Part shown: positions 2,382 to 9,371 of the stretch, piece by piece | Numbering within the stretch: the first letter of the stretch is position 1 | Layout of the letters: each line of letters starts with the position of its first letter | Source of the DNA: Escherichia coli | GTDB taxonomy: Bacteria > Pseudomonadota > Gammaproteobacteria > Enterobacterales > Enterobacteriaceae | Direction: 5' to 3' (one strand) | Assembly (NCBI RefSeq): GCF_011045215.1 | Contig: NZ_CP049202.1 | Length of the DNA: 64,000 nucleotides | Notes under the pieces: model-generated | Databases searched by the model: none | Told to the model about the DNA's origin: nothing | The model's input: only the letters and a program-made list of their open reading frames with translations | Program-made: the position numbers and the translations under genes

Positions 2382-3083
2382 GATAATACTCCGGTAATAA
2401 AGTATGCAGGCAGTATATACGTGAACAGATGTAATGACAAATGTATTGACATGTGACCTATGCCGCGTCAGCGGCATGGAAGGCGGCACTCCGTTGTTTC
2501 ATGTGATACTGGTGTAAAACCGCCGAAGCCCGGCGTAAGCCGGTACTGATTGACAGATTTCACCTTACCCATCCCCAGCCCTGCCAGACTATACCCGCTT
2601 TCAGCTATGAGAGAGCTTCTGTGCGCGGTCGGAGTGGTCCCGACGAGGGTTTACCCGAAGTCGGGGCGTATCTCCGCGTTAGCGGGCCGTCAGGGCCGCT
2701 TACGAGCGTGTACACGATACGTCCAGCCAGAAGACTGACAGCGATGATGATGTAGTTACAACATTCATAATTAAAAGCGACTCTGTTCCGGCCCTTTGGG
2801 CCGGGGCGGGGCCGCTTTTCAGTTATGAGGGATGGGCACGGTGTTTCAGAACTGTGTCTGTCGGGGCCCGCCGCTTGCGGTGGGAGGTGCTTTTAAATTC
2901 TGAGCGGCGCGGCTTTGGCCGCTGCAAGCGAAGGCCTTTTTGTATTTGTTCATAGACGTTTCAGAGATAAAGACTTTCCCTGCGGTGGAACAACGCAGGG
3001 GATTAAATGAAGGGGGTAAGACTATATTGCAGGTTTGCTGTTTCAGGTTTGCAGCTTCTTAAAGTTCTTTGTTTGCGGATTTA

Positions 3084-3092
3084 TGTGGATAA
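3084..3092 (-). promoter_or_regulatory. DnaA box (TTATCCACA on minus strand) in putative oriR
   Basis: plus strand reads TGTGGATAA, about 165 bp downstream of the 342-aa rep ORF stop, as in R1/R100-type origins. Confidence 0.5.
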
Positions 3093-3210
3093 CTGAAACG
3101 ACGTGGCCACGTTCTGACGACCGGTGAGAGATTTTATGGCCGTGTATGGACGGATGTGGGGATTTCAGGTGGTTACGGGGGATTTCTGGCCGGACAGAAC
3201 CTGCGCCAAA

Positions 3211-3225
3211 AGCCCCGAAGGGGCT
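3211..3225 (-). terminator. rho-independent terminator-like hairpin after the rep ORF
   Basis: AGCCCC-GAA-GGGGCT stem followed by a U-run on the minus strand, 35 bp after the stop at 3259. Confidence 0.5.
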
Positions 3226-3258
3226 GGCGATGATTCAGTGCTGAAGGAATGGTGTTGT

Positions 3259-4287
3259 CTAGTGCGGTGGCGGGGCAGCCAGCGTCAGTTCAAGCTGACG
3301 CAACTCCCTGATGGCCAGTCGCTTCAGATGGTCATCGGAACAAAAATAGGCTTCATCCGGCGGCAGACGCTTCCTGAGATACTCTGCCATCTCATGAATC
3401 TGCTGGTCGGCAGGCAGTTTCTTCAGGCGATTAGCACGCTTACAGGCTGCAGCTTTCGCCCGACGGTGTTTCAGCGCATCCTGGCTGCGCTGCAGATACC
3501 AGCGTTTTCTGGCCGCATGTACGGAGATATCTTCATCCTCACGCAGTACACCTTCCCGGATGAGCTGCTGGCGGATTTCACTTTCACGCAGCCGCTTCTG
3601 CTGCTGTTCGTGAAGTTTAACCATATCGACGCCCAGCATCTGCCACCCTGCCGGTGTTATCCAGACATAGCGCGGCAGACGCTGGCGGGTTTCACGGTCC
3701 CACATCGTTTCTTCCGACACACCCAGCACACCAAAACGTACCTGTTCGGTCAGCAGACGGGAAAGCCGGGAGACCGTCACTTCCAGTTCCGGAATAACCT
3801 TCCCCTTGCTGTCTTTCGGGCTGATTTCTCTGGCCAGACGGGAAACACTCATGCCTACGGTATGTGTGCCCGCATCACTGAAGCTGACCAGAACCGGCCA
3901 GATGGCATCGAGGAGGCGTTGTTTTTCCGGACGGAAAGCATATTTGCGACCGGCGAACGTCCGTTTCTGCACGTAAAAAGGATGCAGAGACATGTGCATG
4001 CGCAGGCTCTGTTCGCCAGTCACCGGGTCCTTTTTCACCAGGCGGTGATAAGCGTGCCCAAGCTGCCCGCTCAGCGCCTTATAGCGCGCAGGACGATACC
4101 AGGTCGGATTTTCGCATTTGGGTTTAGTGGAGTGCTCACCACGACGACGCTTTGTGCGCTTCCTTTCCGGTTCAACCAGGAAAGTGGTCGCCCTTCCCGC
4201 TTCATAATCTTCCCAGAAACGGATTTGCTCTTCGGGAGGCAACTGAGCCCAGTGGCCTGGACGGGTATTTTTAATCACCATACCCAC
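3259..4287 (-). CDS. replication-initiator-like ORF (342 aa, basic); relationship to RepA1 unresolved
   Basis: long ORF ending at the terminator and DnaA box; overlaps the RepA1-like ORF in another reading frame; opposite-strand 430-aa ORF judged a shadow. Confidence 0.45.
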
Positions 4288-4816
4288 TCCGTAAGACAGC
4301 CAGACGTGCTTCAGTCAGCGCCAACGGAAATATCCCTAAAAACTCAAAAAAACGAGGCGTCAGCGTTATTGTGCAGCGCTTATTGTAAAAATCTGATGAC
4401 GGGGAACAGACTATAAACCCAAAATCTTCTTCCAGTGATTTAATTGCTCTGACAGCTCGCTCAATGGCTAAATGACCATGAGCATTTTTTCTGGCTAATC
4501 CGCAATCAAGTGCAAGTTCGGTTATAGAACGATGCACTTGATTTGAAACAGGATCGTAGTAGAAGCACATGCCTTGCAACAGTGCATCAATAGCTCTGCG
4601 ACGAAGAACGGAAGGCTTGCGTTTACGTTTACCATTAGCGCGCGCGCACGCAGAAGCTATATCGAATGCAAATGTTTCGGTAAACCCCACCGCTTTGCCC
4701 ATTAGCTTCTCACAGAACGGCAGCGTCCTGGCACCTTCACGGGGTGTGAATACCGGATTAGGGTTCTTTACCTGACGGTAATACGTTTGTTGAAGATCAG
4801 TCACACCATCCTGCAC
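4271..4816 (-). CDS. repA1: RepA1-like replication initiator, N-terminal region (IncFII RepA family)
   Basis: N-terminus (V)[24 protein letters not shown] and [13 protein letters not shown] match IncFII RepA1 as recalled; ORF stops after 181 aa instead of about 285. Confidence 0.55.
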
Positions 4817-4839
4817 TTACAATGCACAGAAGGAGTGAG

Positions 4840-5100
4840 CACAGAAAGAAGTCTTGAACTTTTCCGGGCATATAACTATACTCCCCGCATAGCTGAATTG
4901 TTGGCTATACGGTTTTTAGATGGCCCCGGTAATCTTTCTAGCTCGCCAAAGTTAAAGAAGATTATCGGGGTTTTCACTTTTCTGGCCCCTGTAAATCCAC
5001 ATCAGAACCAGTTCCCTGCCACCTTATGGTGTGGCCAGCCATAAAATTCCTTAAACGATCAGCAATCTATCACTCACGCCTGAGATAAGCAATAATGTGA
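4840..5100. promoter_or_regulatory. copA antisense RNA / leader-peptide control region of the RepFIIA replicon (approximate)
   Basis: position between copB and repA1 with local hairpins; boundaries not determinable by eye. Confidence 0.3.
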
Positions 5101-5104
5101 ATAT

Positions 5105-5362
5105 TCACGAAATCGCTCTGCGTTTCAGCTCTGATTCAATCAGTTTTTCAAGCATCTGCGCCTGGGTAATACCTTCCTCATCCGCCAGTTCACTCAGCCT
5201 GTCTTTTAACCGGGCCTGGATAACCGCATGAAAAGCCTTATGAGTGTTGCTTCTGCGAGCCAGAGAAGCTCTTTGTCTCTCTCTGGCCGGAACAGGGTTA
5301 CCTTTCCGGTATGCACGCTTAGTGCCTGATGAGGAAGTCACTGCATTTTCTGTCTGCGGCAT
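5105..5362 (-). CDS. repA2: CopB/RepA2 copy-number repressor
   Basis: 85 aa; [11 protein letters not shown]...[16 protein letters not shown] resembles R100/R1 CopB as recalled; sits upstream of repA1. Confidence 0.8.
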
Positions 5363-5421
5363 CTCGCCTCCTCAATACTCAAACAGGGATCGTTTCGCAG
5401 AGGATACTACAGTTTTTTTTA

Positions 5422-5558
5422 ATCAGCGACTTGAAAGTTGTGACGATGACATGTGTTGGCGCACAAATCATGTCTGATTACGACCGTTTAATGTGATTTT
5501 GATAATGAAATGACTGAAAAGCAGGAAATGCCTTAACCTGTGTGCCCCCGGGCGGGGC
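5422..5558. repeat. direct repeat copy A (~135 bp)
   Basis: near-identical to 6552..6682 (TTGTGACGATGA...GCGCACAAATCATGTCTGATTACGACCGTTTAATGTGATTT...). Confidence 0.85.
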
Positions 5559-5669
5559 TGGCGGCATCAGAGATATGGAAGATAACCTGAGAGGTTATCA
5601 ATTAAAACTTATTAGTGCCCAAGTGTTACATATCATAAAGAAATGATGCCGCAATAAAATTGCTCAGTC

Positions 5670-6152
5670 TCAGACTTTATAAAATAAGGTGTCAGGTGCC
5701 ACAACTGACTGGACAAAACCAAAACGCTCATAAAACGCTCTGGCGTCATCATCAATTGCATGCACCATAACCGCCTTAACGCCAACCTGTTCAGCCACAT
5801 TTACAACCCGGTGAATAGCATCACTCAGCAGCCATTTACCGAAACCATGCCCCTGGGTACAAACATCAACAGCCAGACGCCCTAACAGAACAACAGGAAC
5901 AGGATTAGGCATGTTATGCCGCAAACTGCGCCCAAGCTCGGCATGTGTGACGGAACCCGTAGCTAATGAGTAGAACCCCACAACACGTAAAGTCCCCTCC
6001 AGGCAAATAACGAACGTGCGGGAAGCATTGAGCATCTGGTTTTTCATAGCCCGACCACGTAACCAGTTACTTAGCACCTCATTTCCACAGTCAAATGGCT
6101 GAAGTATATGCTCATCCGTCAGCAATGCCGGCGCGGTGACATTTATTTCCAT
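5670..6152 (-). CDS. GNAT-family acetyltransferase toxin (TacT/AtaT-like)
   Basis: 160 aa with GNAT-like core; overlaps the stop of an upstream DUF1778-like antitoxin ORF. Confidence 0.7.
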   Translation of the reverse strand: MEINVTAPALLTDEHILQPFDCGNEVLSNWLRGRAMKNQMLNASRTFVICLEGTLRVVGFYSLATGSVTHAELGRSLRHNMPNPVPVVLLGRLAVDVCTQGHGFGKWLLSDAIHRVVNVAEQVGVKAVMVHAIDDDARAFYERFGFVQSVVAPDTLFYKV

Positions 6153-6433
6153 TCAGGCTTTACCGCCATCAGACGTTCACGCCCTTCTGCATTCTGCACA
6201 GGAGCTTCCAGTTGCGTAATAAACGAATCATAACGTTCGTTATCCAGCACAAATAAGCGTTGATCCAGGATAATGTTTTTAGCTTCCTGGTAAGCCAGTT
6301 CAATGATGAAATCAGTACGGTTCTTATTGACCAGGCTCGCAGCATAATCAATAACGGCTCGTTCCTCATCAGTTGCCCGGATGTTAATCTGGTTTTCTCG
6401 CGGTGTTTTACGGACGCTTGCAGCTGTAGACAT
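6143..6433 (-). CDS. DUF1778-family antitoxin (TacA-like)
   Basis: 96 aa from internal ATG (MSTAASVRKTPRENQINIRATDEERAVID...); 4-bp style overlap with the GNAT gene. Confidence 0.65.
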   Translation of the reverse strand: MSTAASVRKTPRENQINIRATDEERAVIDYAASLVNKNRTDFIIELAYQEAKNIILDQRLFVLDNERYDSFITQLEAPVQNAEGRERLMAVKPEWK

Positions 6434-6551
6434 AAAAACCTCAATTGGTAACAATTTGCTATACAATTAATGTTATCGCAAATGGTAACAAAACGCTATA
6501 CAAAATCACTTACGGGAAAAGTGATCACTGATAAAAACAATGACAGAGGCC

Positions 6552-6682
6552 TGAAAATTGTGACGATGATATATGCTGGCGCACAAATCATGTCTGATTA
6601 CGACCGTTTAATGTGATTTCGATAATGAAATAACTGAAAAGCAGGAAATGCCTTAACCTGTGTGCCGGCCCCGGGCGGGACC
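6552..6682. repeat. direct repeat copy B (~130 bp)
   Basis: near-identical to 5422..5558. Confidence 0.85.
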
Positions 6683-6765
6683 GGCTGTTTCCGGCATGTC
6701 GGGTGTCTGCCCCTGAAATACCTCACACTTCCGGAAAGCGGGGACTTCCGTCTCCGCCCGGCAGC

Positions 6766-6915
6766 TTACTTCCGTGCTTCGTAGGCCAGAGTTATCTGCA
6801 CCACTGTATTTCTCCTGTGAATATTCAGCTCACACAACCGTTCCCTGAATATCAGTGAAAAACACAACAACGTGGCGCACACAGCGAGCAACCCTATAAG
6901 GGCATATTTCGTCAT
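6766..6915 (-). CDS. srnB: Hok/Gef-family membrane toxin SrnB-like, with overlapping mok-like leader frame to 6972
   Basis: MTKYALIGLLAVCATLLCFSLIFRERLCELNIHRRNTVVQITLAYEARK matches Hok-family SrnB. Confidence 0.75.
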   Translation of the reverse strand: MTKYALIGLLAVCATLLCFSLIFRERLCELNIHRRNTVVQITLAYEARK

Positions 6916-7260
6916 AAACTTTGACCTCTCTGCAAGGAAGAGGCTACAATCAGTAGTGTTAAGGTACTTCATGCAGACCTCACGAGTTAATGGATTAACG
7001 AGTGGGGTCTTCGCATTTCTGGTACCTGCGTCTTGCCTGAACCAGAAAGGCTCAGACACCCGCAGCGATAATACCACATTCCCGTTTGCCGGCCATGTAC
7101 CTGCATTTTCCGGTTATTATTATAAAAACGCCGGGGACGGGGAAAATTTGCTTTTTCCCGTTTCCGGGGTTGGACAACTGAGCAACGCGAAGGCGTCAGT
7201 TATTTCTGTTTATTACATTCTTCTGTATATTTTCTTTTTACAATTCGACACTGCCTTATC

Positions 7261-7470
7261 TCACCTGACATATGCCCAGACCTCTTTGGGAACTCTGTCA
7301 TATAACCTGTTCATCGTTAATTCAGCAAGACGGTGGTCTGCTGCTGAATTGAAGGCCTCACGCTCACTGTCCGGTAAATCATAGGTGTTCTTACAGATAA
7401 TCTTTTCCAGTGTATTCACCGATGAACACCGCCGTAACTGATATAACCATTCCTGTTTTGTTTTCGCCAT
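7261..7470 (-). CDS. Hha/YmoA-family nucleoid-associated regulator
   Basis: 69 aa; LRRC..NTLEKII.KN.Y.L...E...F.SAADHRLAELTMN.LYD..P resembles Hha. Confidence 0.7.
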   Translation of the reverse strand: MAKTKQEWLYQLRRCSSVNTLEKIICKNTYDLPDSEREAFNSAADHRLAELTMNRLYDRVPKEVWAYVR

Positions 7471-7530
7471 ATTTATTTCCAGTCAGCATGATAATTATAT
7501 GTATTAAAATTCAACGATACAGTCTTTCAT

Positions 7531-7767
7531 TTAATGACTACACCGCTGTCTTTCGCTACAGTTCCCCCTGCAGCGCCGCTGGCAATGCTCTGCTCTTTGC
7601 AGGGCAGACTGTTGCCACTCTGCCCGGGAAGCCATCTGTGCGGCCCGACGCCACGCTCCGGCAGCCTCTCTCCATCGCCCCCTGACCTCCAGTCTGACCG
7701 CCTGACTCCCGGCTTGCTGATAATTCTGGCTCTGCGCATTTCGTGAACTTCGTCTGAGTCCATTCAT
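7531..7767 (-). CDS. hypothetical small basic protein (low confidence; two overlapping frames open here)
   Basis: 78-aa ORF with plausible RBS in GC-rich DNA between hha-like gene and finO. Confidence 0.25.
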   Translation of the reverse strand: MNGLRRSSRNAQSQNYQQAGSQAVRLEVRGRWREAAGAWRRAAQMASRAEWQQSALQRAEHCQRRCRGNCSERQRCSH

Positions 7768-7974
7768 TTTTCCTGTCCCCTTTTACCTTTCCCGATACCA
7801 GCGGAATTCAGGATAAACGTTACTTTCTGATTATTTTTTATCTCTTTGTGTCAAAAGTCATTTCGGATATCCAGGATAATACCCCTCATTTAACTTAAGA
7901 ATAAACATGTGTTACTATATCGCTGCGTAACTTTGTTTGAAGTTCATAATAAAAAATCAGGGGTGAACAGGATT

Positions 7975-8003
7975 TCCTCCATCACGCGATGGAGGATTTT
8001 TTT
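7975..8003 (+). terminator. hairpin plus T-run (rho-independent terminator-like), just beyond the 3' end of finO
   Basis: TCCTCCATC-ACGCG-GATGGAGGA followed by TTTTTTT on the plus strand. Confidence 0.4.
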
Positions 8004-8009
8004 ACTGCT

Positions 8010-8570
8010 CTATTTTTCTTCAAGTACAGCCCTGAGCTCTGCTTTTATCCGGTTCTGGCAACGGATTTTCTCCAGACGCGCTGCCGCATACGCTTCCTCC
8101 TCCTGAGAAATATGCTCCGTCACATACCCTTCCGTGTCATACCGGCAGGCACCGGCTTTCATCGCGCCAAGATAGCTTTCTGAACGGGTGATGGCCTTCA
8201 GCGCCCTGCGCAGTTTTTTATGCGAGAGCGGGATATTCCGCTGCGCCACGTCTTCCAGTAACACGTCCCGGATACCGCAGGCCAGAAGCCGGGGTGTGTC
8301 ACCGTCAAATAATCCCGGCCACCAGGGCTTCAGGGTGTTCACAGCCTCATCCAGTGTGGGCAGGTTCAGATAAATGGACAGCGCCTGTCTGGCCTGCGCT
8401 TTTTTTGCCGCCAGCTCTGCTTCCCGGGCCGCTTTCTCGGCCAGTTTCTGCTTTTTCACCTTCCATTTTGGTGGCGTGGTGACATTGATGATGGTTTTCC
8501 GGCTGCGGACAGGCGTCTCTCCTTCTGTTTTCCGCTTCAGTGTCAGTACCGGTCGTTTCTGCTCTGTCAT
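8010..8570 (-). CDS. finO: FinO fertility-inhibition RNA chaperone (uninterrupted)
   Basis: 186 aa from [14 protein letters not shown]...; closely resembles F/R100 FinO. Confidence 0.85.
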
Positions 8571-8624
8571 GCTGTGTTCTGCCTCTGACGAATCATCCTG
8601 TTGCGGCCAAAGATACCACACCCT

Positions 8625-9371
8625 TTACAGCGCCAGAACGCCCAGTACAACCAGATGACCAGCGTAGAATACCGGGAAAAAATCCCCGGGCCAGAAACGG
8701 GGTAATGATTTCCCTGCACAGGACACCAGACCAACGGTCAGTACCGTCATCACAAGGCCGGCTACAGCCGCCGCATCACTGGCAGCAAGGTTCAGTGCCG
8801 GAATAACAACCAGCAGACATGCGACCAGCGCCAAGCGTTCCGCCCTGTCTTCCGCCCGGTACAATCGGTGACTGACCGCCAGCATCAGCAGCCCGGTAAT
8901 ACCGTAACTGGTGCCGGACAAAAGCAACCACACTGCCAGCAGCAACATGATTCCCACGGAACGCCACCCACTGCGTATTTCACACCATGTCAGCACCTGT
9001 GCCGCAACTGCAAAGGCAAACAGGATATTCCCCTCATACCAGGGAAAGCCGGCCAGATAATATGCGAACTGGGCAATCACCGCCCATCCCCACAGCCGGT
9101 TAATGGTCACCTGCCGGATATGCGCATGACGGGACAGATTCAGCCCCCACACCAGGGCAAAAAGCGGAAAGGCTCCTCGACCGGCCAGAAACATCCACGT
9201 CTTATCCAGATGCAGAATGCGGTTTGCATGGTCCAGAACCATCAGCACCAGTGCCACCGTTTTGATGATATCCCGCTGTCCGGGTGACCAGACCAGCAAC
9301 GACTGCAACCAGGTATCGGTCCGGGCAGCCAGTGAATCATTACGTGTTGTGTTCGTGTTATCCGTTGTCAT
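8625..9371 (-). CDS. traX: TraX pilin acetylase
   Basis: 248-aa polytopic membrane ORF directly downstream of traI. Confidence 0.85.
   Translation of the reverse strand: MTTDNTNTTRNDSLAARTDTWLQSLLVWSPGQRDIIKTVALVLMVLDHANRILHLDKTWMFLAGRGAFPLFALVWGLNLSRHAHIRQVTINRLWGWAVIAQFAYYLAGFPWYEGNILFAFAVAAQVLTWCEIRSGWRSVGIMLLLAVWLLLSGTSYGITGLLMLAVSHRLYRAEDRAERLALVACLLVVIPALNLAASDAAAVAGLVMTVLTVGLVSCAGKSLPRFWPGDFFPVFYAGHLVVLGVLAL

Follow-up and report, generated by a model that had tools for sequence, protein, structure and literature searches.

A GmvAT-type toxin-antitoxin operon lies between two copies of the hok-copB spacer in an F-type plasmid of Escherichia coli

We analyzed a stretch of 64,000 nucleotides from an Escherichia coli contig (NZ_CP049202.1, assembly GCF_011045215.1), hereafter called the window. 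The plasmid it belongs to is an F-type (IncFIC/FII-control) conjugative plasmid, and the region studied is 99.8% identical to plasmid A of E. coli C5 (NZ_CP010123), which is typed IncFIB/IncFIC/IncI-gamma-K1. Read along the minus strand, the order of the elements is traI, traX and finO, a hok/srnB locus, one copy of a direct repeat R (the hok-proximal copy, R_h), the genes gmvA and gmvT, the other copy of R (the copB-proximal copy, R_c), copB, and then CopA, tap and repA. The features on which the rest of the text relies are the following.

4889-4979, plus strand: CopA antisense RNA of the IncFII-type control region (Rfam RF00042, 97.5 bits for a gathering score of 60)
5105-5362, minus strand: copB/repA2, replication regulatory protein of 85 aa (NCBIfam NF010256, 132 bits for a cutoff of 87; RefSeq annotation of NZ_CP010123)
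5424-5562, no strand: R_c, copB-proximal copy of the duplicated hok-copB spacer (repeat search and alignment)
5563-5669, minus strand: cassette-specific 3' flank of the toxin-antitoxin (TA) operon, in all cassette-bearing IncF loci, but in neither empty sites nor distant TA homologues
5670-6152, minus strand: GNAT toxin of 160 aa, GmvT orthologue (identity to pCP301 CP0059, Pfam GNAT domains, PDB 9ilr)
6143-6433, minus strand: TacA/DUF1778 (RHH) antitoxin of 96 aa, GmvA orthologue (identity to pCP301 CP0060, PF08681)
6434-6543, minus strand: promoter/operator region of the TA operon (direct-repeat family and conservation in TA homologues)
6544-6685, no strand: R_h, hok-proximal copy of the duplicated hok-copB spacer (repeat search and alignment)
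6700-7062, minus strand: hok/srnB-type type I toxin locus (Rfam RF01794, 94 bits for a gathering score of 59; RefSeq "Hok/Gef family protein")

The cassette between R_c and R_h is 981 bp long (5563-6543) and carries a GNAT toxin and a TacA/DUF1778 antitoxin. The toxin is identical to CP0059 of the Shigella flexneri plasmid pCP301 at 153 of 160 residues (96%), and the antitoxin to CP0060 of the same plasmid at 97 of 100 (97%). Matches of the toxin to the Pfam domains Acetyltransf_7, Acetyltransf_10 and Acetyltransf_1 (PF13508, PF13673 and PF00583, E~1e-7) indicate a GNAT fold, and its matches in the PDB are 9ilr, a near-identical solved structure (E=8e-103), TacT (5fvj, E=4e-44) and AtaT/KacT (about 1e-17). 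The antitoxin matches the profile PF08681 (TacA1/DUF1778) with an E-value of 4e-19. By homology, the pair is thus a GmvAT orthologue, i.e., a type II toxin-antitoxin of the GNAT/RHH (DUF1778/TacA) kind. The antitoxin gene lies immediately upstream of the toxin gene, with its stop overlapping the toxin start by 10 nt; it starts at an ATG at 6433, with a GAGG 5 nt upstream, and the RefSeq annotation extends it to 6445. The published substrate that GmvT acetylates is almost exclusively Gly-tRNA(Gly) (PMC9177977). GmvAT has a stabilising effect on pINV, and neighbouring DNA can be guarded against deletion by TA systems (PMC8923223). Given the 96% identity to GmvT, acetylation of Gly-tRNA(Gly), neutralisation by the antitoxin and post-segregational killing would be expected of the present pair as well. 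Judged by this homology and by its place on the plasmid, the module is an addiction system located directly upstream of the replicon.

The promoter region of the operon contains two direct repeats of 25 nt (6442-6466 and 6479-6503), of the form GGTAACAA-N5-TATACAA, which are the probable operators of the antitoxin. TA homologues of 71-74% nucleotide identity share the operator part, as far as ~6505, and the outer ~38 bp (6506-6543) are cassette flank. At the other end of the cassette, the 3' flank (5563-5669) includes a perfect 8-bp hairpin at 5581-5599 and has a 25-bp indel variant in the class of loci represented by L006 and L009.

The IncFII-type control region of the neighbouring replicon is complete in kind (CopB, CopA, tap and RepA), and its initiator part is atypical. 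The interval 3259-4816 on the minus strand of the window is that of a hybrid replicon, in which tap is followed by a truncated IncFII-type repA1 of 181 aa, covering profile positions 1-171 of 287, that overlaps by 17 nt a complete RepA of 342 aa. The latter shares 94-95% identity with the RepA of many plasmids typed IncI1/K, with 1,467 records in the 90-95% identity band. The same hybrid arrangement occurs in NZ_CP010123 and in pEA4_88, and pRHB01-C08_3 has the same IncI-type RepA at 99.1% identity.

On the other side of the cassette, RefSeq annotates a hok coding sequence at 6766-6915 (an ORF of 49 aa), and an Rfam "sok" match covers 6905-7061 on the hok-sense strand. NCBIfam Hok models match this gene only below their cutoffs. 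An inverted-repeat search gave a 15-nt inverted repeat at 7048-7062 and 6700-6714, probably the tac/fbi fold-back pairing, and the best sigma-70-like site in the region (6921-6950 on the plus strand, TTGACC-18-TACAAT, 10/12) lies opposite the leader of hok, in antisense orientation, and probably corresponds to the promoter of sok. With a Hok ORF, a sok/leader region and a predicted fold-back pairing all present, we assign the locus to the srnB-like Hok/Sok type I toxin-antitoxins. Further along, at 7480-7658 on the plus strand, there is a sub-threshold Rfam match to AS-pc02 (32.5 bits for a gathering score of 40, E=3e-5), an antisense RNA described from the IncFII plasmid pHK01. Other plasmids show the hok side of the cassette to be a hotspot of insertion, with an insertion of ~1.26 kb inside hok in locus L005 (5235-6494), an IS481-family element in L007 (~4055-5128), and a group II intron with ltrA in L011 (3939-5618).

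The core of the two R copies extends over 5424-5546 and 6544-6666, where a repeat search of the window aligns 123 nt without gaps and with 114 identities (93%). Beyond this core there is an indel of 3 bp and then a 17-nt match between 5546-5562 and 6669-6685. Over their full length the copies measure 139 and 142 nt and are 90.1% identical (E=1.4e-51; MAFFT and BLAST on the 64-kb window), and neither the repeat search nor BLAST returned a third copy in the 64-kb window. The longest perfect tracts they share are of 43 nt (5457-5499 and 6577-6619) and 34 nt (5513-5546 and 6633-6666), and weak homology continues for ~15 nt past their right ends, to ~5577 and ~6700. The initial annotation had described near-identical direct repeats at 5422-5558 and 6552-6682 with the TA module exactly between them. 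The repeats are real and these coordinates are good to a few bases, but an identity of 90-93% makes "near-identical" generous; similarly, the module is bracketed by the repeats, but its genes lie 107 bp (5563-5669) and 110 bp (6434-6543) away from them.

R is native DNA of the IncF replicon, namely the spacer that separates copB from the hok/srnB-type killer locus. In the empty site of pDLI.6n (968 bp, locus L001), we find copB, one R and hok, without TA. On its left, this site matches the DNA to the left of R_c, and on its right the DNA to the right of R_h; its single R aligns with both copies in the window. The spacer is a composite. The initial ~76-89 nt are found with copB also in plasmids that lack hok at this site (1623-1711 in locus L026, 1927-2015 in L027), and many flank matches in PLSDB stop at window position 5499, which corresponds to the replicon-side part of R alone. 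The other end, with a GC-rich hairpin, travels with the hok/sok module of ~0.5 kb (window ~6620-7120), which is itself present in some plasmids and absent from others. Since the duplicated segment spans the junction between the hok and replicon modules, the TA operon would have arrived after hok was already in place. The conservation of R is ordinary, with 79-97% identity between plasmids, which is below that of hok. R is not a dedicated recombination site: it is a spacer made of replicon-upstream DNA and of the tail of the hok module.

The position of the left part of R, and its co-occurrence with copB, suggest that it may hold the upstream or promoter region of this gene. Two sigma-70 scans, one of them looser, gave no convincing promoter of copB or of the TA operon in R or next to it, and an Rfam scan of 2500-9000 at E<=1 returned nothing inside R, with CopA, sok and weak matches elsewhere. 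The GC-rich hairpin at the right end of R_c (5546-5562) has its counterpart in R_h (6664-6685); the former lies 3' of the TA operon and the latter just 3' of the fbi element of hok. It forms the better stem in minus-strand RNA, where U-G replaces C-A, and may be a terminator. In the empty site of pE6474.1 (L012, ~733-743), 16 bp of this hairpin are missing at the hok end of R, which shows that it is not indispensable. Minus-strand folds that include the 3' regions of hok or of the TA operon are stable (z=-4.0 and -3.2), which is due for the most part to the structure at the 3' end of hok and to the GC hairpins. The plus-strand fold of R2 is no better than that of shuffled sequences (z=-0.3), and we make no claim of a small RNA in R. 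Our search of the literature gave nothing usable on an earlier description of these repeats or on a mapped copB promoter.

The distributions of R and of the TA module are very uneven. R has 2,933 places in 2,846 PLSDB records, and is single-copy and cassette-free in ~2,660 plasmids. The TA core (5563-6543) is in 187 records: 105 Shigella, 79 Escherichia, 2 Salmonella and 1 Klebsiella. The Escherichia records include many E. albertii and livestock E. coli, and the TA DNA is ~95% identical to that of the 105 Shigella records, which are pINV. The 87 places of R beyond one per record are close to the number of non-Shigella TA plasmids (82), so that R, at the sensitivity of megablast, is duplicated essentially only where the TA module is present. 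At least 60 non-Shigella records span R_c, TA and R_h from end to end. Matches to the copB and hok flanks occur in at least 5,000 records, among which 55 cover at least 80% of a query that includes the TA module. As regards complete E. coli genomes, 1,988 out of 5,426 carry R. The IncF plasmids that we examined have one R when they lack the TA module and two when they have it, with the exception of pRHB36-C07_3, which has R_c only. The initial annotation had proposed to look for related plasmids with a single repeat and no TA module, and these exist: there are thousands of IncF plasmids with copB, one R and hok, such as pDLI.6n. It had also named an outcome that would speak against its reading, namely repeats duplicated regardless of the TA module; what we observe instead is a duplication found essentially only with it, the full R-TA-R arrangement being present in 44 of the 1,988 R-bearing genomes.

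All ten cassette-bearing loci compared (the window, L004 to L011, and L025), including plasmids of E. albertii and Salmonella, have the same junctions. The left flank of every R_h contains GATAAAAACAATGAC, and to the right of R_c each locus has one or the other of two related variants, which the 25-bp indel further into the 3' flank distinguishes. That these junctions are shared by all the cassette-bearing plasmids examined suggests a single old origin. Within one plasmid, R_c and R_h are only 73-92.5% identical among the sampled loci, and this divergence points to an old duplication whose copies have not been homogenised. The Shigella virulence plasmid fits in this history. In pCP301 (L003), a remnant of 95 bp (4883-4977, R positions 1-95) remains beside gmvA, IS600 has replaced the toxin side, and, on the antitoxin side, a copy of IS1294 follows ~300 bp after the remnant. 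The presence of this remnant indicates that the gmvAT of pINV goes back to the same R-TA-R structure, in the spacer between hok and copB of an IncF plasmid.

More distant TA homologues, with 71-74% nucleotide identity, are found at unrelated sites in pESI-like Salmonella plasmids, in a Salmonella IncFII plasmid and in an Enterobacter plasmid. They are homologous over the two genes and the operators, as far as ~6505, and neither R nor flanking repeats were found at these homologues. We also found no donor arrangement in which the TA module is next to a single native R. The plasmid pRHB36-C07_3 (L022) was considered as a progenitor and rejected, as its TA module is nested in the subclade of L005 and L010 and the breakpoint on its right lies within the promoter flank of the cassette. 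It keeps R_c and the TA module, has lost R_h and hok/sok (~860 bp in all), and has the TA operator region joined directly, at 1708-1712, to DNA upstream of a gene for an ANR-family regulator. It looks like a secondary deletion variant.

One pair of near-isogenic plasmids from a single UK survey differs by the presence of the cassette, which is absent from pRHBSTW-00673_2 (L023) and present in pRHB06-C20_2 (L025). On the copB side they agree at 676 of 676 positions, as far as a point within R; on the hok side they have 2 mismatches over ~1,880 bp, and otherwise they differ by the TA module and one R alone. The single R of L023 matches R_c up to ~644 and is R_h-like from ~680, which puts the switch point at 645-676, inside R. 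The cassette is thus polymorphic, with a one-R empty site in homologous DNA and a breakpoint in an identity tract. As read from this alignment, the pair shows a recent gain or loss by homologous recombination, in either direction. It would fit a double-crossover allelic exchange or an integration/excision, with one crossover in a 37-nt identical tract of R. The R of L023 differs from the R_h of L025 at 5 sites in 677-775, and L023 is therefore not a simple deletion product of L025. When we compared all chimeras of R_c and R_h from 10 cassette-bearing loci with 10 empty sites, no empty site was an exact chimera, the best having 4 mismatches. Similarly, no clean product of a deletion from repeat to repeat was found, including in a search with an in-silico R_c/R_h deletion of pVCSW7. 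A simple deletion between the two copies is nevertheless plausible given their identical tracts.

The divergence of the repeats is not uniform along their length. The identity of R_c to the consensus of empty sites is, by quarter, 0.93, 0.99, 0.89 and 0.80, falling towards the cassette, and that of R_h is lowest in the cassette-proximal quarter (0.875). Such a gradient is expected if the outer parts of the repeats exchange with the pool of plasmid backbones and the inner parts stay linked to the cassette. The module had been initially described as gained by recombination, or as one that could be lost by repeat-mediated deletion. The polymorphism at the repeats and the exchange boundary inside R, seen in L023 and L025, agree with this view, but the empty site that is an exact chimera of R_c and R_h did not turn up. 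On the whole, the observation and its interpretation hold, but the R-TA-R structure is old and not a fresh event in this plasmid, since at least ten lineages share its junctions.

We regard as the best explanation, with a probability of about 0.78, an old insertion of a GmvAT operon into the hok-copB spacer, accompanied by a duplication of the spacer, and followed by spread through homologous recombination and retention by addiction. More precisely, a GmvAT-type operon of ~1 kb, with its own promoter and operators, would have entered the spacer in a single old event, with ~140-155 bp duplicated on either side. The founding route might have been the Campbell-type integration of a circle with the TA module and R; alternatively, two copies of the plasmid might have undergone an unequal or illegitimate exchange. 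The R-TA-R structure would then have been transmitted by descent and also exchanged among IncF plasmids in the same cell, through homologous recombination of the RecA type, presumably dependent on RecA, with R and the neighbouring copB and hok DNA as homology arms, as seen for one near-isogenic pair. The repeats would make the cassette deletable in principle, the identical tracts being of 43 and 34 nt here. From the published biology of GmvAT, a deletant would run out of the labile antitoxin but still contain the toxin, and post-segregational killing by GmvT would select against it. Such counter-selection of the products of recombination between the two R copies would explain why diverged repeats persist.

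The structure might have arisen in other ways. The hok module and the spacer upstream of the replicon could have been duplicated in tandem, with the TA operon later replacing the copB-proximal hok body. This would account for the fact that R extends across the boundary of the hok module and the replicon, and for the weak homology between the copies, which continues for ~15-20 bp past the GC hairpin into the hok 3' region and is clearer in the class of L006 and L009 (GGCGATTTCTGAAATGTG versus GGCTGTTTCTGGCATTTC). We nevertheless consider this origin unlikely, since there is no recognisable hok/sok remnant in the 107-bp 3' flank or in the 38-bp outer promoter flank, and no plasmid with a tandem hok-R-hok-R was seen. 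Even if R is native backbone DNA, and its left part accompanies copB in the absence of hok, it is hardly credible that the repeats are ordinary control sequences of the replicon or of hok duplicated regardless of the TA module, because R is single-copy in empty sites and its extra copies track the TA module. Chance similarity or an assembly artefact, which we place with this last explanation, would have to produce a match with E=1e-51 and the same structure in more than 60 independent complete assemblies.

Direct repeats that bracket a small self-contained module could also be site-specific recombination sites, with the TA module as a mobile cassette akin to Xer/dif modules or to integrons. 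The imperfect palindrome that an inverted-repeat scan reveals in R (5448-5458 and 5464-5474) goes in this direction. Yet the ORF list and the annotation have no recombinase or transposase gene in 5424-6685 or next to the cassette, and the single pattern that we tried for a dif/cer-like core (6-nt spacer, up to 3 mismatches) has no match anywhere in the window. The R copies are 73-92% identical, with changes spread along their length, R is cassette-free in the ~2,660 plasmids mentioned above, TA homologues occur elsewhere without R, and the one exchange that we mapped falls in a plain identity tract, as homologous recombination predicts. A site-specific origin is therefore very improbable. As for transposition, a scan of 5380-5620 and 6500-6740 gave two short internal hairpins and no terminal inverted repeats at the ends of the cassette, and the duplication consists of ~140 bp of backbone, versus a target duplication of 2-14 bp for a transposon or an insertion sequence.

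The insertion of the operon with duplication of the spacer can be extended into a bolder proposal, in which R-gmvAT-R would be a self-protecting, homology-armed cassette that hops between co-resident F-type plasmids, the duplicated spacer supplying arms that suit almost any IncF replicon, with addiction killing the excisants and with the expression of the TA operon perhaps tied to replicon control. The last element comes from the position of R_h, which puts a copy of copB-upstream DNA before the TA operon, so that its expression might be linked to the control of the replicon, like Kid and copB in R1. We find this proposal doubtful as a whole.

According to these results, gmvAT, one of the three systems that maintain the Shigella virulence plasmid, had its original site in the spacer between hok and copB of ordinary IncF plasmids. 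They provide a sequence-level case of an addiction module that F-type plasmids gain and lose through homologous recombination at a defined spacer of ~140 bp, which may be of use for the annotation of IncF backbones and for reasoning on the stability of resistance and virulence plasmids. This is a known TA system in a known backbone, and the work adds a modest comparative-genomic detail that is biologically ordinary and involves no new mechanism. As far as we could find, the duplication of R around gmvAT was previously undescribed, and it traces the gmvAT of pINV to the hok-copB site.

Several known systems resemble this one in part. The proteins are of the same families (Pfam GNAT and TacA1) as those of TacAT, AtaRT, KacAT and ItaRT, and toxins of the GNAT-DUF1778 family acetylate aminoacyl-tRNA (PMC9177977). 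In contrast to the module described here, these four systems are mostly chromosomal or at other plasmid sites. To our knowledge, none of them has been reported with this duplicated spacer. The Kis-Kid system of R1 (parD/pemIK) is likewise a type II toxin-antitoxin directly beside a copB-copA-repA replicon of the IncFII type, and its Kid toxin is functionally coupled to the copB-repA mRNA (PMC4344636). Kis-Kid differs in being on the other side of the replicon, in having a toxin of an RNase family and in lacking flanking repeats, and we see no sign of such a coupling for GmvAT here. The TA modules of Acinetobacter plasmids flanked by pdif (XerC/D) sites are also small, bounded by recombination sequences and able to move between plasmids, but pdif are inverted Xer sites of 28 bp, whereas the repeats here have no Xer-like core and are direct repeats of ~140 bp of backbone. 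The succession of repeat, insert and repeat is also the product of Campbell-type integration, and an empty site made of the left of one copy and the right of the other is what excision or deletion between direct repeats leaves; compared with the textbook case, no circular donor is known, and the R copies are old and diverged rather than identical. The closest relative is the GmvAT of Shigella flexneri pINV (pCP301 CP0059/CP0060), which has the same operon layout and operator region at ~95% DNA identity. There, the module is off the replicon, bounded by IS600 and IS1294, and has lost R_c and most of the 3' flank, whereas the module of the window is intact between hok and copB.
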